From an uncultured Gammaproteobacteria bacterium (GTDB lineage: Bacteria; Pseudomonadota; Gammaproteobacteria; JAAEPA01), in NCBI GenBank assembly GCA_963731655.1, contig CAVSWL010000003.1, forward strand, positions 24,443-88,442: 64,000 nt of DNA, written 5' to 3'. The notes below the pieces were generated by a model that saw only the letters and a program-made list of their open reading frames with translations, was not told the DNA's origin and searched no databases. Position numbers and translations under genes: made by a program. Position 1 is the first letter of the stretch; each line of letters starts with the position of its first letter. Positions 36,086 to 46,257 of the stretch are shown here, in pieces.

Positions 36086-37570
36086 TTAACCACCGGTGCG
36101 CTTATAAATTTTACGCACCGCATCGGGGCTGATGTCTTCAATCCGAGCGACCCTATAGTCAATCATGTCCTCGAAATCGTCGTGATCAAAACCCAACACA
36201 TCCACGTTGCTGCGAGTTTCATGGATAATGATTTGTGGGTGTAGGGGTTGATTCTCTGCATCCGCATCGCGTAATACCAACTGAATCCGGCGCCAGTCAT
36301 CATAGAAATATTCCTGCAGCAACGGCACCAATTGATTCAGCAGCACGTCTTTTAACGCAGCGAAATCCCGCACTTTGCATAAATACGCATGCCCCAACAT
36401 CAAGTCCCGGTTCAGCAAGAAACGAAGGCGCTTGTTCATCGCTTCCAACAATGCCCGCAGATTAATGACCCCACCTTCGCCATCCTCGATATAGCCGTCA
36501 CCACGGGAGCCCCTGATGACGCCCGCATCCGGCATCATTTCCTGAAATCTGAAACGGCGGCGCAAGGCGGTATCCAACAACGCGATGGAACGGTCAGCCG
36601 TGTTCATGGTGCCGTAGATGTCCAGATTCTTCGGCACCGTAAAGGCATCGCCGGAATACGGCAAGGTGATCGACAAGCCTGCCGCGAGGCTGCCGTCCGG
36701 TTTATAAGTCGCGCGTTTGTCCTGCTCAATTAAGGTAATCAGCTCACCGAAAATCTTGGCGATATTGCCACGGTTAATCTCGTCAATAAAAATGGCGTAA
36801 CGGTTTGCCGCATCATTTTGAGCGCGTTGGCAAATCCGCCGAAACACACCGGGGACCACCCGATAAACCAACTCGCCCGATTCTTCGTCTTGCACCGGCC
36901 GGATGCCTTCCACAAAATCCTCATAGCTGTAGGCTTGATGAAAGGTGACAAACTCGTAGCGGGTTTGAGCGTTTACTGCTGATGTATATTCCGCTTTCTT
37001 TCGATTGAGCTCGTACGTTTTACCTGTGCCAGGAGGGCCGTAGAGGATTAGATTAGTCGCCTCTGCGACCTCGGAAATGTCTTCGGTCATCGGCTTGGAA
37101 GGGGAAAGATTAGATAACTGATCCCACAATTTTTCTAGTTCCTCCGCACTGCGTTTTTTAATTTCTATTCCGGACGCCTGGGGCCACCATTGCTGATTGT
37201 CGATCGTGATTGCCGCAAGGTCTTTTTCGGTGATGAAATTCTCTTCGAATAAATCGAGAATGCGGATGTATTCAATATCCACATAGCGCCGGGATTTTTC
37301 TTTCGTTACATCCCCACTTATCTCATCTGAAGAAAATGATTCATAGGGCTCGGATACGATGTGACCCAAACCCATTATGCCTTTGGGCGATTCACCTACA
37401 CGTATCAACCAGGCCTTATCCCCCACGGATATTTTTTGACTTGCACAGCGCCTTTTGTGGACAACCGTAGCTCCTTGCCGTGTTCTTTGGATGTCTTCAG
37501 CCAAATCCGTCCATTCTCCCTTCCGAGGGTTCCAACAAAAGAGCCAATGGGATGGTGAGGTATCAGTCAT
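36086..37570 (-). CDS. mcrB: McrB AAA+ GTPase with an N-terminal PUA/EVE-like domain
   Basis: LILYGPPGTGKTY, FIDEINRGNIAKIFGEL and GTMNTADRSIALLDTALRRRF. The N-terminal ~90 aa (HWLFCWNP..GDKAWLIRVG..GIMGLGHIV) resemble a PUA-like reader fold. Confidence 0.9.
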   Translation of the reverse strand: MTDTSPSHWLFCWNPRKGEWTDLAEDIQRTRQGATVVHKRRCASQKISVGDKAWLIRVGESPKGIMGLGHIVSEPYESFSSDEISGDVTKEKSRRYVDIEYIRILDLFEENFITEKDLAAITIDNQQWWPQASGIEIKKRSAEELEKLWDQLSNLSPSKPMTEDISEVAEATNLILYGPPGTGKTYELNRKKAEYTSAVNAQTRYEFVTFHQAYSYEDFVEGIRPVQDEESGELVYRVVPGVFRRICQRAQNDAANRYAIFIDEINRGNIAKIFGELITLIEQDKRATYKPDGSLAAGLSITLPYSGDAFTVPKNLDIYGTMNTADRSIALLDTALRRRFRFQEMMPDAGVIRGSRGDGYIEDGEGGVINLRALLEAMNKRLRFLLNRDLMLGHAYLCKVRDFAALKDVLLNQLVPLLQEYFYDDWRRIQLVLRDADAENQPLHPQIIIHETRSNVDVLGFDHDDFEDMIDYRVARIEDISPDAVRKIYKRTGG

Positions 37571-37573
37571 AGT

Positions 37574-37608
37574 CGTTTATCGTTGATCGGTTATCGGTTA
37601 TCGGTTTT
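37574..37608 (+). repeat. heptamer array A: 5 tandem units (CGTTTAT CGTTGAT CGGTTAT CGGTTAT CGGTTTT)
   Basis: Read directly. It begins 4 nt beyond the mcrB start codon and lies 5' of the plus-strand PIN cassette. Confidence 0.9.
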
Positions 37609-37650
37609 TTATCTCTTGAGAAAAAACGGAGCATTTGTACAATTGTCTTT

Positions 37651-38040
37651 ATGAACATTTTGGCAGATACGAATATATTTTTAGCGGTTGTTCTGGATGA
37701 GCCGGAAAAAGACCGTATCATCCAACTCACAGCAGAGGCTGATCCCATCGCGCCGGAAATATTGCCGTATGAAATTGGTAATGCGCTATCCGCCATGATT
37801 AAGCGCAAGCAGATTACGCGGGATGAAGCGTTATCTGCGCAAAAAGCTACAAGCTTTATCCCTGTGAGGTTGATCCACATAGATGTGCCATTGGCCCTAA
37901 AACTTGCGATTGCATGCAATATCTACGCGTATGACGCTTATTTCCTACAGTGTGCAAAATCCTTAAGCCTTCCGCTTTTAACACTCGACAAGCGCATGAA
38001 ACAAATAGCCACACGGCTTAATATCGACGTGTTGGAGTAA
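37651..38040 (+). CDS. PIN-domain toxin (VapC-like)
   Basis: 129 aa with ILADTNIFLAVVL (first acidic residue) and AYDAYFL. On the opposite strand to the surrounding operon. Confidence 0.8.
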   Translation: MNILADTNIFLAVVLDEPEKDRIIQLTAEADPIAPEILPYEIGNALSAMIKRKQITRDEALSAQKATSFIPVRLIHIDVPLALKLAIACNIYAYDAYFLQCAKSLSLPLLTLDKRMKQIATRLNIDVLE

Positions 38041-38046
38041 CCCTTA

Positions 38047-38265
38047 ATGAAAGTATTTACCTATTCAGAAGCCCGCCAGAATCTTGCTAAGCTATTAAAG
38101 CTTGCGCAAAAAGAAGAGGTCGAAATTCGTAGACGAGATGGCACTTTGTTTTCCTTAACGTTAAAGAAGAAAAAAGCAAAATCACCTTTCGATGTTCCCG
38201 GAATAAAAACGAAAGCGACGACTGAAGAGATTTTGGATGCTGTTCGGGAATCGAGAAAAAGTTAA
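38047..38265 (+). CDS. Phd/YefM-type antitoxin, encoded downstream of its toxin
   Basis: 72 aa. MKVFTYSEARQNLAKLL..EEVEIRRRDG is a Phd/YefM N-terminal pattern. It lies 6 nt after the PIN gene. Confidence 0.65.
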   Translation: MKVFTYSEARQNLAKLLKLAQKEEVEIRRRDGTLFSLTLKKKKAKSPFDVPGIKTKATTEEILDAVRESRKS

Positions 38266-38275
38266 CAGTTATTTT

Positions 38276-38333
38276 CGGTTGTCGGTTGTCGGTTGTCGGT
38301 TAACCGTAAACTGATAACTGATAACCGATAACG
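38276..38333 (+). repeat. heptamer palindrome B: (CGGTTGT)x3 CGGTTAA | CCGTAAA (CTGATAA)x2 CCGATAA
   Basis: Hand pairing around the GGTTAACC centre (38298-38305) gives ~22 Watson-Crick pairs plus 4 G:T on the plus strand. It fills the gap between the Phd stop and the MTase stop. Confidence 0.9.
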
Positions 38334-38334
38334 T

Positions 38335-40422
38335 TTAAATCCCGACAACAACCCGCTGCTCGCTGCGCTCAATCTCGCTAAGCGCATCAAACGCTTCCAA
38401 CACCAACCGTCTTGTTCGATATTCGCCGAATTCTTTGATCTCCTTGTTCTTTAGGACACGAAAGGTTTCTGAAGGGTAGTCCTCGCCCATCACGTCCGCG
38501 GGATCGAGGATGTAGCGCAGCTCGTCGCGGGTCAGACCGTAAAGTTTTGCATAGTAGGCGTCCAGTTCGGATTTGAGTTGGTGGCGACGTTCGGGGTCGA
38601 AGGGGAACGGTTCGCCGAAGTAGCCTAAGTCTTCGGCGAAGGGTTTTAGGTCGTGGGTGGTGTAGGCGAGTTCTAGGACGCGGGGGAGGATGAATTTTTG
38701 GTCAGTCCGGGCGTATTGATCGGGAGAAAGAAATGGCAATTGTTTTGGAATGTAGAAATTGAAATTTGCTCCACCTATCTTCTGCCGTGCAATAAAATCA
38801 AATATTAAGCTGATGCAATTTGCGTAAAATGCGGCTATTTGAGGAGTGTGGATATCCTGAGAGGGTATTAGCAGGTGAAAACTATTTCCGACAGGTGATA
38901 TAGGAATAATGCATGGAATTACGCTTCTTTCATCTGTTGTTCTGGCAATTCCTCGCCACCCCAATAAATACTTGGGCCGCCGCGATTCCAGCAGCGGCCA
39001 AACCAGCATCCAAGGATCGGCATTTGCTTTCAGCGACTTTGCCAGTTGCGTAGTTTCCTCGTAGCTCAGTGGATAGTCGTGTTGCATTTGCCGCGCGGCT
39101 TCGGTCTGCGGCGACGGGGTGGTGGCGAATAAATCACCGTTGGTCCCCTGCGTCGGAGAAGCTAACAAACTATCGAATAGTGACCTGTATTTCTTTCCCG
39201 GATGCAGCGCCAGATGCGCGCCGGCGGTCCAGAGTTTCAAAGCGGTGGTGAGCGCTTCAGCATCTTGCTTTTTAGCGGCATCCAGCACCGCTTTAGGCGC
39301 GCGGGCGGTGCGCAGGGTGACTTCGTTTTTTGCCACCCAATAGCGGGGCCGGTTGACGTAGTTGGGGGCTTGCTTCTCCGCCAGCGTGCAATCCCGGCTG
39401 GTTTCGCCGTCGGTTTCGTAGGTCGCCCAACGGTGGTCGTAGTGGTGGATCATTTTTGCTTCATATAATCGTAAATGGTTGTCAGTTATCAGTTGTCGGT
39501 TAACGGTTTTTGCTTTGCTGTTAACCGGTAACTGATAACCGGTAACCGATAACTCCTCGAGTTGGTTATGAGTCGTAAACAAGCCGCTGTCGTTGGACAT
39601 ATCAAATAACCGAGCGAACTTGATGCCCCAAGAATTTTGCTCCGGCTTTTTGCCACTTGCCTCGCGGATCAATACCGGTGCAGAGCGGTAGAGTTTTTTG
39701 GTCAACTCGGCGTCCATCTGGGAGCGAAATACCGGGCAGGTTTTGGTGTTGGGGTTGATGAGCTCGAATTCTTCTCTGCTCAAACTGAAGCGCCGTCGAT
39801 CATCTTTAAGTTGCGTGGGCTGGGTGGCGAAAAACGCCAACTCTGCCTTCGGCACGTTATAGCCCATAGTCAGCAGACAAAATTTGTAACTGCGATGTAC
39901 GCCGGGAAACAATGCATCACGATTCTCGAAATCATACAAGTTGGCCAAACGATTCCCTGCCGCCAACCAACCGAAGAACAACTTGGTCGAGTCGTCGGTG
40001 GCGATGCCGGTAGGTACAATCGTACCCGCTCGACCGTCCGGGTTGATCGCTTTGGCGAAGTGCTCGGCAAAAATTGCATAGAGATTGACGTCGCCGCGTC
40101 CCGTCAGCGGATAGCGCCCCGATAGACGCGCAAAGGCGCTGCCGCCTTCTGCGCTTTGTTTGGCCCGCATAAAATCATCGTATAAGGTTCGTTCGGCCGG
40201 AGTATCGCTATTAGTCAGGGCGTTGATCAGACGGTTGCGTGCGGCGGCATTGGCGGCTCCCGCAATTCCGGTGCTGCGCGACGCGAAAAATTCCTTTTCC
40301 TGTAATTTGATGCGCTCCCAAGGCGGATTCCCCAGCATCACGTCAAATCCACCGTTCCCTTCTTCATCAAACACGCTCGGAAACGCCAGTGGCCAGTGAA
40401 AGAACTGGTGGGTTTCGGCCAA
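38335..40422 (-). CDS. N6-adenine DNA methyltransferase, 3' fragment (catalytic NPPW motif plus C-terminal domains)
   Basis: 695 aa with FDVMLGNPPWERI (motif IV) and LYEAKMIHHYDHRW. It joins the upstream fragment through a 1-nt frameshift near 40424. Confidence 0.85.
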   Translation of the reverse strand: MAETHQFFHWPLAFPSVFDEEGNGGFDVMLGNPPWERIKLQEKEFFASRSTGIAGAANAAARNRLINALTNSDTPAERTLYDDFMRAKQSAEGGSAFARLSGRYPLTGRGDVNLYAIFAEHFAKAINPDGRAGTIVPTGIATDDSTKLFFGWLAAGNRLANLYDFENRDALFPGVHRSYKFCLLTMGYNVPKAELAFFATQPTQLKDDRRRFSLSREEFELINPNTKTCPVFRSQMDAELTKKLYRSAPVLIREASGKKPEQNSWGIKFARLFDMSNDSGLFTTHNQLEELSVTGYQLPVNSKAKTVNRQLITDNHLRLYEAKMIHHYDHRWATYETDGETSRDCTLAEKQAPNYVNRPRYWVAKNEVTLRTARAPKAVLDAAKKQDAEALTTALKLWTAGAHLALHPGKKYRSLFDSLLASPTQGTNGDLFATTPSPQTEAARQMQHDYPLSYEETTQLAKSLKANADPWMLVWPLLESRRPKYLLGWRGIARTTDERSVIPCIIPISPVGNSFHLLIPSQDIHTPQIAAFYANCISLIFDFIARQKIGGANFNFYIPKQLPFLSPDQYARTDQKFILPRVLELAYTTHDLKPFAEDLGYFGEPFPFDPERRHQLKSELDAYYAKLYGLTRDELRYILDPADVMGEDYPSETFRVLKNKEIKEFGEYRTRRLVLEAFDALSEIERSEQRVVVGI
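39477..39553 (+). repeat. heptamer palindrome C, in-frame inside the methyltransferase gene
   Basis: Arms at 39477-39506 and 39520-39553 with a 13-nt loop. It is translated on the minus strand as ..ELSVTGYQLPVNSKAKTVNRQLITDN.. without a stop. Confidence 0.9.
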
Positions 40423-41230
40423 GTGCGGTGACCATTTGATAGACGCCTACCGGTAACATGCCGCCGTCGGCGAGCAGCTTCAGGTGGGCATTGGTGGGAA
40501 CGCTGTCCCGGGTTTCTGCGGTTTTGGGCGCAAAGAAAGCCGCGGTAAAGAGGTCCTCCAGTAGCCGTTCGTCTTTGGACTGCTGATCTTGCCGGGCTTG
40601 CTCGAAGGCGCGGCGCTTGGCTTCGACCTGTTCCACGCTGTCTTCCGGCATGGTTTCAAAATCGTTAAACGGAAGCGAAGCCATGTTCAACGACACGGCG
40701 ATATCCTCGCCGGCTATTTTGTTGATTTTTCTCAGTTCGGTGCAGATTTTTTTATCGTCCCCCGACAATGCCTTGTAAGCATCGTCCGGGATGCCGTTCT
40801 CCAACAGCGCTGGATCCAGCACGCCCACCAAAGCATTACCGCATCGAACATGGGCGTCCAGAAAACTTAGAGGTTTCCCCGGCTCGATGGACTCCAGCCA
40901 CAGGCCGGTCTTACACAGTTCGATGGCCAAGGGATTGATATCCACCCCATAAATACTGTGCCGTACAACTTCGCGCAGGGCATGGCGATAGTGTTGCTCT
41001 GTGGATTGATCGAGCCCCGCGTCGATACGCGCCAACTCCATCGCCAGGCGACGCGCCGCCGCCAGCAGGAAATGGCCCGAGCCGCAGGCTGGGTCGCATA
41101 CGGTAATTGAAAGAATTGACTCGCGGGGATTTTTGGGATTCCGTTGCAGGCGGTCCTCGATCACCGGCACCAGCGCCGATTGAATCAGCTCCTGCACCAG
41201 GGAATCGGGAGTGTAATAGGAACCGGACAA
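40367..41230 (-). CDS. N6-adenine DNA methyltransferase, middle fragment (SAM-binding motif I)
   Basis: 287 aa with SGSYYTPDSLV and VCDPACGSGHFLL. The frame is open upstream to the MITE border (..FLGDDEDEQATNGHARKL). Confidence 0.85.
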   Translation of the reverse strand: MSGSYYTPDSLVQELIQSALVPVIEDRLQRNPKNPRESILSITVCDPACGSGHFLLAAARRLAMELARIDAGLDQSTEQHYRHALREVVRHSIYGVDINPLAIELCKTGLWLESIEPGKPLSFLDAHVRCGNALVGVLDPALLENGIPDDAYKALSGDDKKICTELRKINKIAGEDIAVSLNMASLPFNDFETMPEDSVEQVEAKRRAFEQARQDQQSKDERLLEDLFTAAFFAPKTAETRDSVPTNAHLKLLADGGMLPVGVYQMVTALGRNPPVLSLATGVSERV

Positions 41231-41282
41231 TTTACGTGCGTGACCGTTGGTTGCTTGCTCGTCCTCGTCATCACCTAGAAAG

Positions 41283-41490
41283 CATACGTCACAAGTTAAC
41301 CAAATTAGGAAAATGTCAAGTTCTCTGGTAAAGAAAATTTTACTTTAATAATCATTAGATTACATGTCTGCCCGATGTGTTGTGGTCAGAATGGCAAAAG
41401 CGATTCACTTTTTAGGTTTTTTTAACATATTGTTTTAATTTAGATTTTATTTCTTGACAAATCCACTTTTTTCCTAACTTGTGGCGAATG
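41283..41490. mobile_element. 208-bp MITE-like insertion with a 9-bp target-site duplication
   Basis: TSD CCTAGAAAG at 41274-41282 and 41491-41499. Terminal inverted repeats are CATACGTCACAAGTTA and CATTCGCCACAAGTTA (14 of 16 match). AT-rich with no ORF. Removing the element plus one TSD rejoins ..WRLSFLG|DDEDEQ.. in frame. Confidence 0.8.
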
Positions 41491-42851
41491 CCTAGAAAGC
41501 TTAAACGCCATTGACCTTGGGTGCGCAATTGCGGAATCAGCTCCAGCAGGGATTCGTATACCGAACCGAATTCTTCGGTGTCCATATCCCGGTAATTAAC
41601 CAGGGACAGTACGCCCTCATATTGGAAGTAACCAAGCTTAAACAGCGCCTCATACAAAAAGCGGTTTTCCAGTTCACAGAATTCCAACGCCGCGCATTGC
41701 TCGACGCTAAATATGCCGCCCAGTGCGGGTTGGGCTAGTAAGGACTGGCCGTTTGCAAAACCGGCAAAGATGATCAACAGTTGCTGCCAGGCGTCGCCAT
41801 AGTGGTCATGGTGGGCGCGCAGCCGCGAGCGCTTGCGCAATTGGGCGACGCTGTAGCTTTGTTGGTACAAGCTCCTGGCAGCGGTGTAATCTTGCCCATC
41901 ATGGTCTACGGGTAAAAGGGCCAGATCGCGGTCTTCCGCAGTCAGCAAGAACAGCAGGCGGTACACCAGGCGCAATACCTGTTGGTAATACTGCTCGGTG
42001 GACAGCTCGCCGCTGCTGAGCTGGTCGCGCAGCGCTAGGTTTTGCGGGTGCGCCACAAATCCCGTGCCCAACGCGCGCAAGGCGTCTGCCACGCCGTAGC
42101 GCAACTCGCCCAATACGCGTTCGCCTTCGGCCGCGCCTTTCTGCCGCCATTGTTCCAGCCAACAGTTCTCTAATATGCCATTCTGAGGCTCTGTGCGGCT
42201 GTGATGCAGTAACAACCAAAGGGTTGCGAAGTCGGGATAGTTCTCTTCGTCAAATAAGCTGTCGAGATCCACCTCGATATAGGCCGGGCGGGTCATGGCG
42301 GGATTGTTGCGCAACACGCACAACTGAACACCGTTGGAAACCAGCGCCCACAGGCAGGCGTTTTCCGCGTTCAGGTATTCCTGGGCGAGACCCACGGGGG
42401 AGCGTTTATTGCCATCCTGACCGAAGGCGACATCGCCCTTATCCAATTCTTTGCCGGCGTCGCATAACACCAAGGGCACGCTGCCGTCGTTGGCGAAATG
42501 AGTGATGGGAAATTCGCGCTCACCGATGCGCCGCGGCTGAGCGGATTCAACGCGGAAACCCAAAACATCGTTTAACAGGGGCAAGAGCCAGAGTTTTACC
42601 GCCAGTCGTTCCGGATGAATATCGGTGCGCTGACGATGTTCGTTGTAAGCTTGCCAATGACTTTGCGCAATACGCCAATAACGGCCTAGCTCGTCCGCCA
42701 GCTTCAAGCATTTCGGAATTCCGTAGTCGGCCGGAGTTTGGCCAGGCAAGGCGTACTTGCGCGCCTTCCGCAACACCTGGCTGGTCAGCAGTCCACCGAC
42801 GACGCGGATGGATTCGAACAGTTGGTCGTTCGGATTAGTTTCCTTACTCAT
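41412..42851 (-). CDS. N6-adenine DNA methyltransferase, 5' fragment (N-terminal domain)
   Basis: 479-aa ORF. Residues after ..QGQWRLSFLG are read-through into the MITE, so genuine coding ends at about 41491. Confidence 0.75.
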   Translation of the reverse strand: MSKETNPNDQLFESIRVVGGLLTSQVLRKARKYALPGQTPADYGIPKCLKLADELGRYWRIAQSHWQAYNEHRQRTDIHPERLAVKLWLLPLLNDVLGFRVESAQPRRIGEREFPITHFANDGSVPLVLCDAGKELDKGDVAFGQDGNKRSPVGLAQEYLNAENACLWALVSNGVQLCVLRNNPAMTRPAYIEVDLDSLFDEENYPDFATLWLLLHHSRTEPQNGILENCWLEQWRQKGAAEGERVLGELRYGVADALRALGTGFVAHPQNLALRDQLSSGELSTEQYYQQVLRLVYRLLFLLTAEDRDLALLPVDHDGQDYTAARSLYQQSYSVAQLRKRSRLRAHHDHYGDAWQQLLIIFAGFANGQSLLAQPALGGIFSVEQCAALEFCELENRFLYEALFKLGYFQYEGVLSLVNYRDMDTEEFGSVYESLLELIPQLRTQGQWRLSFLGIRHKLGKKWICQEIKSKLKQYVKKT

Positions 42852-42868
42852 TGGTCCTTTTCTAAAAA

Positions 42869-42924
42869 GTTATCGGTTATCAGTTATCGGTTTCCGGTTA
42901 GCTGCTAACCGATAACCGACAACC
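42869..42924 (+). repeat. heptamer palindrome D
   Basis: GTTATCGGTTATCAGTTATCGGTTTCCGGTTA - GCTGC - TAACCGATAACCGACAACC. It lies between the MTase start (42851) and the four-helix-bundle gene stop (42926). Confidence 0.9.
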
Positions 42925-42925
42925 T

Positions 42926-43276
42926 TCAACGATTATTCAAAGAATCATGTAACGCCTGAAGCATTCTTGAAATTGATTTCAATTCCTTAATCAGTGCTTT
43001 CGCTTCCACGTCTGGAAGCAGCTTGACGGCTTGCGCGATAAACACCTGAGTTCTCAGTTCCGCGGCCGACCCCTTTGATATGTTTGTAAATCGCTTAAAT
43101 TCAGCAACACTGTTTCTCTCACTTCCTTCCGCAACATTAGAAGGAATGGATACCGCCGCGCGCAGCATTTGATCCTTCATTGCGTAATCGCGACAATCTC
43201 TCAGTAATTCATACAGACGTACCGTCAACCGACACGACTTCTTCCAAACCTCCAACTCTTCAAACCCAACACTCAT
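42926..43276 (-). CDS. four-helix-bundle protein (23S rRNA intervening-sequence / S23p family)
   Basis: 116 aa. FEELEVWKKS, LRAAVSIPSNVAEGSER and SKGSAAELRTQ are the hallmark of the TIGR02436-type family. Confidence 0.85.
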   Translation of the reverse strand: MSVGFEELEVWKKSCRLTVRLYELLRDCRDYAMKDQMLRAAVSIPSNVAEGSERNSVAEFKRFTNISKGSAAELRTQVFIAQAVKLLPDVEAKALIKELKSISRMLQALHDSLNNR

Positions 43277-43288
43277 CCCTTATCCCCA

Positions 43289-43349
43289 CCGACAACCGAC
43301 AACCACGACAACCGACAACCGATAACCGATAACCGATAACCGATAACCC
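43289..43349 (+). repeat. heptamer array E: ~8.5 tandem units (CCGACAA x4 with one 9-mer, then CCGATAA x4)
   Basis: Read directly. It fills the gap between the four-helix-bundle start (43276) and the SNF2 stop (43352). Its orientation is complementary to arrays A and F. Confidence 0.9.
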
Positions 43350-43351
43350 CT

Positions 43352-44581
43352 TCATAACAAACCTATATCCGGCACCAAGACATAAACGCCAACCACATCC
43401 ACCGGCAATTGCGGGTGAACCTGGTATTTGCCGCGGGCCTCGGCGGCTTCGCGGGTTCGGCGGTGGTCGGCCAGCAGGGTTTCGGCTCGTTCGCGGGCGA
43501 GTTGTTCAAACAAAGCCTGCCGCGCCGGCAGTTCGTCGATGGCTCGGGATAACTCACGGTTTTTTCTTTCCAAGGGCATGTTTTTACTGACTTTCGCCTG
43601 CATCAATTGCAGGGCCTGCTGCTTTGGCAATACCTTGGTTTTGCCAGCGCCGGTTACGGCCACGGCCAGCGCTTCTTCTCCTAATAAATCCCGGGCGGCG
43701 TCGCCGCGCTTGAGCGTGAGGCGCGACCGCAGCCGCAGTAGATAAACGATGGTTTTGGACTCGACGTCCGCGGTGTATATCGCACTGGCGCGGGCGACCA
43801 GTTGGGTGTTGGCGCCGCGCATGGCCATTTCCGCCAGGTAGTCCGCGAGCTGGCTTACCAGCGGATGGGTGCGGTGGATAAACTCGGCGTGAGCCGCGCT
43901 CGGATATTGGAAGTCGATTTTCTTGAGTTGCAGCAAGCCGGCAGCTTCCAGGCGGTCTTTGAGTTGTGGATGCTTGTCACCCACGTGTTGCAGTGGCGCA
44001 CCGAAACCTCCGATTGAGATGGGCTGCAGCGGCGCGCCCAGCCGGTCCAAGGCGTTGACGACAAAACGTTGTACGTCCTGCTCGGTACCCAACACGGCGA
44101 AGGCCTTTTCCCACTCTGGCAACACATCATCCGGCTTGAGTCGATTCTGTGCGAAGACGGTGCGGTTCTGCCTGGCCTTGTCACGGGCGGATGCCCACTT
44201 GGCATCCAGAGCCTGCACCTCTTCATCGTCGACAAAGAGATCGAACTGTTTGCTTGCTCGCCGCTCCTTGCGAAGCAAAACGGTATTGAGGATTGCCTGA
44301 GTCACCCGGTTGTCGTCTTCCGGCATAGGCACCGACACGCCCAAGGCCTTACGAATATTGTCGGCTTTGCGCAAAATGACTTGCAGTACGGCGCCGTCGA
44401 TCGGATTGTCATCGCCGTATAACATGAGCGCCTTGACCGTCCGCGCGCGCTGGCCGAAGCGGTCGACCCGGCCTTCGCGTTGTTCGTGCCGGGTGGGGTT
44501 CCAGCTCAGGTCGTAATGCACGACCGCGGTGAATTGATCCTGCAGGTTAATCCCTTCCGATAAACAGTCGGTGGCGACCAA
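43352..44581 (-). CDS. SNF2-family helicase, 3' fragment (helicase C domain plus C-terminal region)
   Basis: 409 aa with VATDCLSEGINLQ and WNPTRHEQREGRVDRFGQ. Confidence 0.85.
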   Translation of the reverse strand: MVATDCLSEGINLQDQFTAVVHYDLSWNPTRHEQREGRVDRFGQRARTVKALMLYGDDNPIDGAVLQVILRKADNIRKALGVSVPMPEDDNRVTQAILNTVLLRKERRASKQFDLFVDDEEVQALDAKWASARDKARQNRTVFAQNRLKPDDVLPEWEKAFAVLGTEQDVQRFVVNALDRLGAPLQPISIGGFGAPLQHVGDKHPQLKDRLEAAGLLQLKKIDFQYPSAAHAEFIHRTHPLVSQLADYLAEMAMRGANTQLVARASAIYTADVESKTIVYLLRLRSRLTLKRGDAARDLLGEEALAVAVTGAGKTKVLPKQQALQLMQAKVSKNMPLERKNRELSRAIDELPARQALFEQLARERAETLLADHRRTREAAEARGKYQVHPQLPVDVVGVYVLVPDIGLL

Positions 44582-46257
44582 AATCGGATCTTTATCGCTG
44601 ATTTTAGCTGTTCGATTTTTTCCTGTCGCTCGACCGGTGTCAGATCACCGGTTACGAAAATCACTTCACGGTGCTTGAATCGTTCGGCGAGTTGTTCCGC
44701 CAGGTATTCCGCGGTGGCGATATATCGGCAAAAGATGACCGGGTGATAACCCTCGTCCAACATGGGTTTGAGCATTTTCAGCAATGTTTTGAGTTTGGGA
44801 TCACCGCTGCTTTTGAGCCGTTGCGCGCGCCCGATCAATTGATTCAGGCGATCGATATCTTCAGGCAAGGCCGCCCCAGGTTCGGCGTCGTCAAAGCTGA
44901 GGCCATCGTCCGCGCCATCGAGCACACTGGCGGCCCCCTGGGTCTCCAGCGCCGCCTGCAATTGGTGTTCGTTTTCAGGGTCGGCATCAAGAGTGGTGGT
45001 TAAACGGGTGTTCAGCGCGCGAATCGCCGCCTGGGGAGAGGATGAAATACAACGCAACAAGGCCAGCGCCGCCCACCAGTTCATGCGCGCTTTAAGCGTG
45101 CCTTGATGTTCACGTTCGACCAGTTCGCGCGCATAGGCCAAGACGTCTTGGAAAATGGCCTCCCATTCATCGCTGAGCTGGTAAGTTGCCTCGGTGGTTA
45201 AGCGCTCCGGAAACAGGGTCATATCCTGCCATTCTCTGATATCTTGGCGGCGCCGCTGAATAAAATGTTCAGCCAATGCCAGCCGCAAAGGATGGTTCGC
45301 GCTTTCAATCTGTATGAGTTCTGCGAATTCGGGTTTGAGTAAGGACAACAAGTTGTAAAAGGCTTCTTCGTCGCCGCTGTGCGGCGTGGCGGTTAACATC
45401 AGTAAATGACGCGAACTCTTGTTGGCCAAATCTTTGAGCAGCTCGTAACGCTGTTGCCGTCCCTGGCCCCTGTGGGAGCAGGTATGCGCCTCGTCGACGA
45501 TGATAAAATCGGGGCATTGCTCGGCGAAGGCGTCCCGGCGGTTTTTATTCTTGACATAATCCAGCGAGACGATAGTAAACGGGTATTCGGTAAATATTGA
45601 GCTGCCGGCCGGTAAGCTGCGCTCCAGGCGGCCCGCGGTCGTCGAGCGCACCACGGCGGTCTCGATATGAAAACGGTTCTTGAGCTCTTCGTGCCATTGA
45701 TCGCAGAGGTGCGGTGGGCACAAAACGCTCAGCCCATCGATTTCACCGCGATCCAGCATCTCCCGAGCAATGAGCCCCGCCTCGATCGTTTTGCCGATGC
45801 CGACATCATCTGCGATGAGCAAGCGAATCACGTCGAGTTTCAGGGCCATCATCAGTGGCACGAGCTGGTAGGCGCGAGGTTCGAGGGCAATGTTGCCGAA
45901 ACTGCGAAACGGCCCGGCGCCGGCGCGCAGTTTCAGCATCAGCGCATCACGCAGCAACAAGCCGGCGGATTGCGTACCGGCTTGATTCAATTCCGGATAA
46001 GGAAAGCGGGCTGGGACGATCGCTTCGCGTTCCAGCACGGGTTCAATCACGGTTTCCGCATCGTCACCCCCGCCCAGGGGACGAAGATGGAGTCTGTCGG
46101 CTTCGCTCTGCGGCAGCACTACCCATTCACGCCCGCGCGCACGCACGATGCCTCCGGGTGTAAACGTTATTCGGTTATCGGTTCTCGGTTGCCGGTTATC
46201 AGTGGGCATTAGGTGGCTCCGAAGATGTCGGGGTAGCGGGCGATGATCGCGGGCCAC
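44506..46257 (-). CDS. SNF2-family helicase, 5' fragment (probable start at ATG 46209)
   Basis: ADDVGIGKTIEAG, IIVDEAHTCS and LMLTATPHSG. The frame is lost near 44597, where ..EQLKSA should continue DKDPILVATD. The start at 46209 gives a TAATG overlap with the upstream stop. Confidence 0.85.
   Translation of the reverse strand: MARDHRPLPRHLRSHLMPTDNRQPRTDNRITFTPGGIVRARGREWVVLPQSEADRLHLRPLGGGDDAETVIEPVLEREAIVPARFPYPELNQAGTQSAGLLLRDALMLKLRAGAGPFRSFGNIALEPRAYQLVPLMMALKLDVIRLLIADDVGIGKTIEAGLIAREMLDRGEIDGLSVLCPPHLCDQWHEELKNRFHIETAVVRSTTAGRLERSLPAGSSIFTEYPFTIVSLDYVKNKNRRDAFAEQCPDFIIVDEAHTCSHRGQGRQQRYELLKDLANKSSRHLLMLTATPHSGDEEAFYNLLSLLKPEFAELIQIESANHPLRLALAEHFIQRRRQDIREWQDMTLFPERLTTEATYQLSDEWEAIFQDVLAYARELVEREHQGTLKARMNWWAALALLRCISSSPQAAIRALNTRLTTTLDADPENEHQLQAALETQGAASVLDGADDGLSFDDAEPGAALPEDIDRLNQLIGRAQRLKSSGDPKLKTLLKMLKPMLDEGYHPVIFCRYIATAEYLAEQLAERFKHREVIFVTGDLTPVERQEKIEQLKSAIKIRFWSPPTVYRKGLTCRINSPRSCITT
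46165..46199 (+). repeat. heptamer array F: 5 units (CGTTATT CGGTTAT CGGTTCT CGGTTGC CGGTTAT)
   Basis: Read directly. It lies in the first ~14 codons of the SNF2 ORF, encoding TDNRQPRTDNRI on the minus strand. Confidence 0.9.

Follow-up and report, generated by a model that had tools for sequence, protein, structure and literature searches.

How does a repeat built from stop-prone heptamers come to be read as protein inside a DNA methyltransferase gene? The question is raised by a 64,000-nucleotide (nt) stretch of DNA from an uncultured Gammaproteobacteria bacterium (GenBank assembly GCA_963731655.1, contig CAVSWL010000003.1, positions 24,443 to 88,442; hereafter the window, numbered from its first letter). 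An earlier note, made from the sequence alone, had picked out a heptamer palindrome within the methyltransferase open reading frame (ORF) and likened it to the palindromic elements of Rickettsia. Here, we analyzed this element, an unstranded solo heptamer-array hairpin at positions 39477 to 39554 that codes for residues 290 to 315 of the minus-strand methyltransferase ORF. Our results suggest that the hairpin was probably inserted, or seeded and then expanded, in a tolerant surface linker of the methyltransferase while the gene was under selection.

The element consists of two inverted arrays of 7-nt units. On the plus strand, the first arm (39477 to 39504) reads GGTTGTC AGTTATC AGTTGTC GGTTAAC, that is, four units of RGTTRWC, and the second (39520 to 39554) reads GTTAACC GGTAACT GATAACC GGTAACC GATAACT, or five units of GNTAACY; a 15-nt spacer, GGTTTTTGCTTTGCT (39505 to 39519), lies between them. 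The unit consensus is RGTTRTC on one arm and GAYAACY on the other. The arms pair best over 28 nt, with 82% complementarity and a separation of 15 nt, and 14-nt direct repeats are present within them. The location and two-arm form described earlier hold, but the element is 78 nt long rather than 77 bp (39477 to 39553), and a 15-nt spacer with 28 nt of best pairing replaces the proposed 13-nt loop between two ~30-nt arms. Folded as coding-strand RNA, the element forms a stem of ~24 bp at −33.3 kcal/mol, compared with −15.6 ± 2.9 kcal/mol for 200 dinucleotide shuffles of the same sequence (z = −6.17; 0/200 as good). Across the window, the two-unit motif GTTRTCRGTTRWC, allowing at most one mismatch, matched 26 times versus 0.61 expected from dinucleotide shuffles of the window (shuffle maximum, 3). 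All 26 matches lie between 37.6 and 46.2 kb and are thus confined to the defense island that contains the methyltransferase gene. Particular units are also held in common with the element's neighbors: its innermost unit, GGTTAAC, recurs in the hairpin at 38267 to 38333, and GGTTTTT closes both its first arm and the array at 37569 to 37610. Neither Rfam nor a tRNA scan gave a match in the window. An intrinsic terminator was ruled out, since no T-tract lies 3′ of the stem and the terminator scan of the hairpin raised no flag.

Only one of the six frames through the element is free of stop codons, and it is the one used by the minus-strand methyltransferase ORF. In this frame, codons 39555 to 39478 encode ELSVTGYQLPVNSKAKTVNRQLITDN (residues 290 to 315), immediately N-terminal to HLRLYEAKMIHHYDHRW. 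Two earlier proposals, that the palindrome is translated in frame just upstream of a conserved block and that the frame stays open through both arms despite the stop-prone repeats, are therefore confirmed. Because the length of the element is a multiple of three and its sole stop-free frame is that of the gene, the protein stayed continuous.

We examined the corresponding site in the best 120 of 3,507 homologues, a set that includes the window's own protein, and measured linker length in 98 homologues as the number of residues separating the conserved blocks MSNDSxLF and LYEAK. The linker was 10 amino acids (aa) long in 52/98 homologues and 27 to 28 aa long, with a conserved G..G..W..R pattern, in 25/98; in the three closest homologues (P0002, P0006, and P0009; 60 to 65% identity) it was 15 aa. 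The site is therefore variable in length across the family generally, and the 36-aa linker of the window's methyltransferase has an excess of 21 to 26 codons. The heptamer-encoded peptide was found at this site in 0/119 of the other homologues, so the case of a homologue that conserves the peptide without heptamers in its DNA was not observed among them. When the 695-aa ORF was modeled with AlphaFold2 (mean predicted local distance difference test [pLDDT] score, 90.1; predicted template modeling score, 0.86), the sole stretch under pLDDT 50 is residues 300 to 307, within the insert, while the flanks exceed 90; the insert is modeled as a helix-coil-helix excursion. Alignment and structure prediction, the two checks suggested at the outset, thus agree: by comparison with its homologues, the extra segment appears to be a lineage-specific insertion in a variable linker, and it is predicted to form a low-confidence excursion between well-folded parts. 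The extra peptide is most readily viewed as a passenger that was tolerated rather than as a functional domain. Conversion of a 27- to 28-aa linker into the insert by point mutation is unlikely, given that the insert lacks the G..G..W..R motif and that its DNA reads as a clean heptamer hairpin. Fusion of two genes over a formerly intergenic hairpin was ruled out because homologues are continuous across the site; for two full-length homologues, one tblastn alignment in a single frame spans the hairpin.

The hairpin resides in the C-terminal fragment of a broken gene. This fragment (38335 to 40422, minus strand, 695 aa) includes, besides the NPPW motif, a target-recognition-like part. Its Eco57I-type NPPW region, together with type IIG and DrmMI profile matches, places the gene in the DrmMI/Eco57I-type N6-adenine DNA methyltransferase class. 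A fold search with the model recovered a gamma-class N6-adenine methyltransferase fold plus recognition domain, with matches to CamA, M.BseCI, M.TaqI, BrxX/PglX, BpuSI, and MmeI; a PDB sequence search with the 695-aa ORF gave no match. In tblastn comparisons to full-length homologues, the gene was spread over three frames: residues 1 to 179, 177 to 466, and 465 to 1151 of homologue P0004 aligned to 42041 to 41490, 41281 to 40418, and 40422 to 38359, respectively. The middle fragment (40367 to 41230, minus strand, 287 aa) lies in a different frame and carries S-adenosylmethionine (SAM)-binding motif I, and the N-terminal fragment (41412 to 42851, minus strand, 479 aa) runs for its final ~29 codons into an insertion of 207 bp and 30% GC (41284 to 41490, unstranded). 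This insertion splits the gene between its N-terminal and SAM-binding domains. It is flanked by a 10-bp target-site duplication, CCTAGAAAGC (41274 to 41283 and 41491 to 41500), and has terminal inverted repeats (..CGYCACAAGTTA..), which together identify it as a miniature inverted-repeat transposable element (MITE); no further copies were found in the window or in the fetched loci. In addition, a 1-nt frameshift outside any homopolymer lies near 40418 to 40422, between the motif I ORF and the NPPW ORF, with homologue residues contiguous across it. As assembled, the methyltransferase gene is a pseudogene, disrupted by the MITE and the frameshift, a state that the earlier note had overlooked.

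To determine how widely this type of hairpin occurs, we scanned one genome per GTDB species with the pattern GTTATCRGTTRTCRGTT-N(0-30)-AACYGAYAACYGATAAC. Hairpins of this forward array-spacer-reverse array (F-spacer-R) type are widely distributed, with at least 120 loci in more than 10 bacterial phyla. Matches were found in the Bacteroidota (including Saprospiraceae, Flavobacterium, and Bacteroidales), the Acidobacteriota (Pyrinomonadaceae and Thermoanaerobaculia, the latter including one genome with more than 20 copies), and the Cyanobacteria (Calothrix, Fischerella, and Scytonema), as well as in Poribacteria, Planctomycetota, Chloroflexota, Desulfobacterota, Methylococcaceae, and a metagenome-assembled genome (MAG) of Kerfeldbacteria from the candidate phyla radiation (CPR). 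The unit variants elsewhere, GGTTATC and GGTTGTC, are those of the window. The hairpins in other genomes typically occupy a short intergenic spacer. Where ORFs lie on both sides (90 hairpins), 67 are in tandem, 21 convergent, and 2 divergent, such that 88/90 hairpins are downstream of at least one gene; this distribution would be expected for 3′-end or intercistronic hairpins such as repetitive extragenic palindromic (REP) sequences. The pattern had no match in 2.9 million viral contigs, and we therefore see no sign of phage carriage. The palindrome of some copies continues into GC-rich outer stems. In the Thermoanaerobaculia genome OY970284.1 (loci L030, L035, L036, L056, and L114), many hairpins are nested in a GC-rich outer inverted repeat, ..GCGCTTCGCG [hairpin] CGCGAAGCGC.., and so form the core of a larger palindromic element.

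Copies within genes are rare. Among ~129 hairpins, the only clear cases are the methyltransferase copy and one in the isoleucyl-tRNA synthetase (IleRS) gene of the Kerfeldbacteria MAG (locus L098; 2171 to 5743, minus strand, 1,191 aa). There, the in-frame segment SYQLSVDPSNRQPITDNA forms residues 895 to 913, after the catalytic domain and ahead of the anticodon-binding domain (917 to 1055), in a linker of 34 aa compared with 18 to 36 aa (mode, 21) in homologues. Five more hairpins within ORFs of high-GC genomes (L045, L065, L080, L092, and L112) were not accepted as lying in real genes. As an independent second case, in an essential gene, the IleRS copy suggests that such hairpins can supply protein loop insertions. 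Behavior of the Rickettsia type, in which a palindromic repeat is translated as protein, is seen outside Rickettsia and in a repeat family that spans many phyla. Annotators should read strings encoded by heptamers, LSV.GYQL and RQPITDN among them, as signs of a repeat-derived segment and not as conserved motifs. The same IleRS also has an inserted, complete histidine-phosphatase (His_Phos_1) domain at residues 519 to 682, a feature common to many of the listed CPR homologues.

How did the hairpin come to lie in the methyltransferase gene? In the account we favor, it would have entered, or grown in, the naturally length-variable linker and added 21 to 26 codons; only a copy that kept the frame and brought in no stop could have lasted, its peptide would have been carried as a passenger, and the MITE and the frameshift would have killed the gene later. 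Of the frames through 129 hairpins, 12.9% have no stop, and 31% of these hairpins have a length divisible by three, so a neutral insertion would be both in frame and open with a chance of ~4%. This low chance favors arrival before the methyltransferase was inactivated. We infer from it that insertion took place during the working life of the gene. We likewise infer the mode of movement, which may have been recombination or slippage at the arrays or the action of a trans-acting enzyme or factor; no transposase was seen. The lack of target duplications and the uniqueness of the spacers argue against classic cut-and-paste or copy-and-paste transposition and for array recombination, slippage, or a trans-acting factor.

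Several observations weigh against this account. No target-site duplication flanks the element, and none was seen at the listed hairpins in other genomes. Spacers and unit numbers differ among all copies, even inside one genome, a pattern that does not resemble recent copy-and-paste transposition. The databases searched contained no close relative whose site is empty, the best homologue being 60 to 65% identical; the boundaries of the insert and the insertion event are consequently reconstructed rather than read directly. Compared with the three closest homologues, the gene has a net gain of 63 nt, or 9 × 7, which array growth in situ also fits. Finally, because the host gene as assembled is a pseudogene, tolerance of the insert by a working methyltransferase is an indirect conclusion and the weight of the finding is lessened; the open frame could be a coincidence, with a chance of ~4 to 17%, in already dead DNA.

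The best-surviving alternative, which we consider unlikely, is that the element arose in place, a heptamer-like seed in the linker having grown by replication slippage and the inverted arm having formed by local template switching. The 14-nt direct repeats within the arms are what double-unit slippage predicts, and the absence of a target duplication, the unique spacer of each copy, and the gain of exactly nine heptamers over the closest homologues all agree with such growth; moreover, an excess of heptamer repeats has been attributed to polymerase slippage in published discussion (PMC4679880 and PMC4692102). However, the same F-spacer-R polarity and the same GGTTATC and GGTTGTC units occur at at least 120 loci in unrelated phyla, and heptamer arrays occur five more times within 9 kb of the methyltransferase hairpin, with GGTTAAC common to one neighbor (38267 to 38333) and GGTTTTT to another (37569 to 37610). 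Independent convergence of a coding linker on this polarity, these units, and the variants of its own neighbors is unlikely. Insertion of a seed followed by local slippage would be compatible with the insertion account.

We find it still less probable that the hairpin was selected for regulation, as an RNase III site, ribosome pause, or attenuator between the catalytic and recognition parts. Such a role would suit the very stable stem (~24 bp, −33 kcal/mol, z = −6.2), the position of the other two island hairpins exactly at gene boundaries, and the transcribed 3′ or intercistronic positions occupied by the family. Yet the hairpin is conserved in 0/119 listed homologues, its host is a pseudogene, it has neither a T-tract nor a terminator-scan flag, and copies within ORFs are rare (~1 clear case among 129 hairpins), as they would be if most were deleterious. 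The remaining proposal, ordinary coding sequence with a coincidental palindromic and heptameric look or an assembly artifact, has nothing more than the open frame in its favor and is effectively refuted by the motif excess (26 versus 0.61 expected), the fold (z = −6.2), the absence of the peptide from all 119 listed homologues, and the coding sequence to either side, whose collinear, in-frame match to homologues speaks against a chimeric join.

The closest described relatives of the hairpin are the TAACTGA heptamer direct repeats of Beggiatoaceae, cyanobacteria, and Bacteroidetes (MacGregor 2015, PMC4679880). In that study, 169 direct TAACTGA sets were reported and 1 inverted; forward repeats read LITDN and then a stop, whereas reverse repeats read LSVI.YQ. 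Copies were mostly intergenic, near start or stop codons, with rare in-ORF reverse repeats in variable loops, including an RpoC-like protein with LSVINYQLS. Similarly, the plus strand of the window hairpin contains TAACCGG TAACTGA TAACCGG TAACCGA and its coding strand CAACTGA TAACTGA CAACC, so that exact TAACTGA stands beside the variants TAACCGA, TAACCGG, and CAACTGA, and its peptide contains LSVTGYQL and QLITDN. By the definition of that family (at least two tandem units, with related 7-mers allowed), the window element belongs through variants rather than pure TAACTGA, and 5/6 array sites in the window lie directly against a gene end. The window element differs in being an inverted pair of arrays, a 78-nt hairpin translated throughout and deep in a 695-aa ORF, and the dominant unit of the window is GATAACC/GACAACC; PMC4679880 describes neither an association with cassettes nor a hairpin form over more than 10 phyla.

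These repeats are a nearer precedent than the Rickettsia palindromic elements (RPEs), which are ~150 bp long, form ten Rickettsia-specific sequence families, and have almost half of their copies in ORFs (reviewed in PMC10969869). The resemblance to RPEs is that of a palindromic, nonautonomous repeat lying in frame in a coding gene and adding a fold-compatible peptide at a tolerant site. In contrast, the window element is 78 bp long, is made of heptamer arrays, and has relatives in many phyla, features that set it apart from the RPE families as described; in-ORF copies of its type amount to ~1%. On this comparison, the earlier term "RPE-like" would hold for behavior only: the analogy of an in-frame palindrome stands, but the size of 78 nt and the 7-nt units do not support membership in an RPE family. 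Tandem heptamer arrays, chiefly intergenic and frequently arranged as close inverted pairs that can form stem-loops, are also known from the GGGAATC/GGGGAYT repeats of Xanthomonas and Nostoc, with 70 to 75 convergent inverted pairs per Xanthomonas genome (PMC4692102). Unlike the window arrays, these have a G-rich unit and proposed quadruplexes, and no in-frame coding copies or cassettes are described in that paper. The hairpin is akin to two known kinds of repeat, heptamer families and in-frame palindromic repeats.

The earlier note had also suggested that the hairpin is a cargo-less version of cassettes on either side of it. Both neighboring elements have the layout array-cargo-hairpin and are bounded by the same heptamer family. 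Cassette 1 begins with a forward array on the plus strand (37569 to 37610; ..GGTTATC GGTTATC GGTTTTT), followed by plus-strand cargo (37651 to 38265) comprising a PIN-domain toxin gene (37651 to 38040) and a Phd/YefM-type antitoxin gene (38047 to 38265). It ends with an unstranded hairpin without a spacer (38267 to 38333; center, GGTTAACC) that contains TGATAAC TGATAAC and separates the Phd stop from that of the methyltransferase. A sigma-70-like promoter match, TTGAGA-16-TACAAT (37616 to 37643), directly follows the bounding array of cassette 1, and its gene order, PIN toxin before Phd-type antitoxin, is the reverse of the usual one. Cassette 2 lies on the minus strand. An array of CGACAAC/GATAACC units (43281 to 43348, in plus-strand orientation) is immediately upstream of the start codon of a gene (42926 to 43276, minus strand) for a 116-aa Avd-like four-helix-bundle protein (23S_rRNA_IVP, PF05635/TIGR02436), and an unstranded hairpin (42868 to 42924) lies between the stop of this gene and the methyltransferase start; in the direction of the gene, the order is array (43348 to 43281), PF05635 gene (43276 to 42926), hairpin (42924 to 42868).

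The same layout was found outside the window. At an Acidobacteriota locus (L044), the array-cargo-hairpin order recurs with AGTTATC units and a PF05635 gene as cargo. In a protein-side survey of 80 metagenomic loci encoding PF05635 relatives (L121 to L200), the density of period-7 arrays was 2.3 per kb up to 150 nt from the PF05635 gene and 0.078 per kb in the remainder of these loci. With a lenient detector, the densities were 4.2 and 0.19 arrays per kb, respectively, and 23/72 loci had arrays on both sides. PF05635 genes in these metagenomic loci are therefore ~20 to 30 times enriched for flanking heptamer arrays, and 13/16 strictly detected two-sided loci are inverted pairs. The heptamer unit at these loci depends on lineage (GGTTCAC, GGTTTTA, GAGAGTT, GGGAATT, CAAGAAT, GTTTACN, and others). 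The shared heptamer family of both cassettes, the L044 layout, and the PF05635 enrichment lend circumstantial support to the cargo-less idea.

Conversely, a hidden Markov model built from the 80 metagenomic PF05635 proteins detected just 2 PF05635 genes in 843 kb around the solo hairpins. Solo hairpins are thus usually not beside a cassette and far outnumber cassettes, an excess that fits cargo-less derivatives or empty sites without proving them. One tentative possibility, which we rate as more doubtful than not, is that inverted heptamer arrays are the boundaries, or att-like recombination sites, of widespread undescribed tiny gene cassettes. The cargo of such cassettes would consist chiefly of Avd-like four-helix-bundle (PF05635) genes, together with toxin-antitoxin pairs; it would sit inside one arm (array-cargo-array-spacer-array) and could be lost by recombination between direct arrays. 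Solo F-spacer-R hairpins, the methyltransferase copy included, would then be empty or excised sites, and the dependence of the unit on lineage would imply coevolution with a recognizing factor, possibly the PF05635 protein itself. The searchable literature contained no description of literal arrays and none linking PF05635 or four-helix-bundle proteins to heptamers. That inverted heptamer arrays systematically frame PF05635 genes, and that matching solo hairpins abound across phyla, is the chief new lead of this analysis, although it lies outside the coordinates of the hairpin: it provides a handle on a possible cassette system and may be more valuable than the hairpin itself.

ORF-bearing intervening sequences (IVSs) of 23S rRNA are the source of the PF05635 (23S_rRNA_IVP) family. 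As in these IVSs, the PF05635 gene of cassette 2 and of most metagenomic loci examined lies within inverted repeats capable of pairing into a long stem. However, cassette 2 lies outside any rRNA gene, the window being free of Rfam matches, its stems are heptamer arrays, and the hairpin in the methyltransferase ORF carries no ORF. REPs, bacterial interspersed mosaic elements (BIMEs), and MITEs resemble the heptamer hairpins in being short, imperfectly palindromic, and present many times per genome and in lacking coding capacity; the methyltransferase hairpin likewise has the terminal inverted repeats of a MITE and no coding capacity. As with REPs and BIMEs, the family lies downstream of genes (88/90) and is excluded from divergent promoter regions, the methyltransferase copy being intragenic. 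Unlike REPs, BIMEs, and MITEs, the heptamer hairpins have no target-site duplication, their copies are not near-identical, and their arms are tandem arrays. Integron attC sites were rejected because the GTTATCR, GTTGTCR, and GTTAACC units do not fit the GTTRRRY half of the RYYYAAC ... GTTRRRY core sites and no integrase was found among the scanned island ORFs; nor do the two cassettes form a co-oriented integron array, since they lie on opposite strands with the methyltransferase gene separating them. The definitions of attC, MITE, REP, and IVS each fail on at least one tested feature.

The neighborhood is a DISARM/Druantia-like helicase-methyltransferase defense island followed by McrBC. It comprises DruE/DrmA-like helicase pieces, an MZB-domain ORF, an SNF2 helicase, the methyltransferase, an EVE-AAA5 McrB-like gene, and McrC. 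No integrase was present among the scanned island ORFs, and a general Pfam scan of the ORFs from 34.8 to 51.4 kb revealed no Y1 transposase, a link to REP-associated tyrosine transposases not having been specifically examined. The methyltransferase is not the only broken gene: the DruE/DrmA-like helicase is spread over three ORFs (51425 to 50424, 50255 to 47523, and 47516 to 46209), and the SNF2 helicase (DrmD/DpdE-like) is split into overlapping ORFs (46257 to 44506 and 44581 to 43352). Because these two ORFs cover positions 3 to 544 and 557 to 972 of the DpdE profile, the SNF2 helicase is frameshifted (44506 to 44581). The whole island looks degraded, or several of its frameshifts are assembly errors; it may be read as a record of a DISARM/Druantia-like island under erosion by several small element kinds. 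The SNF2 helicase also begins with what is probably the second translated heptamer array of the island. A forward array (46170 to 46204, minus strand) lies just within its probable start, ATG 46209 on the minus strand, which overlaps the upstream stop (TAATG), and would be translated as the first residues, MPTDNRQPRTDNRITF; the units here are altered (GGCAACC and GAGAACC), so that no stop codon arises.

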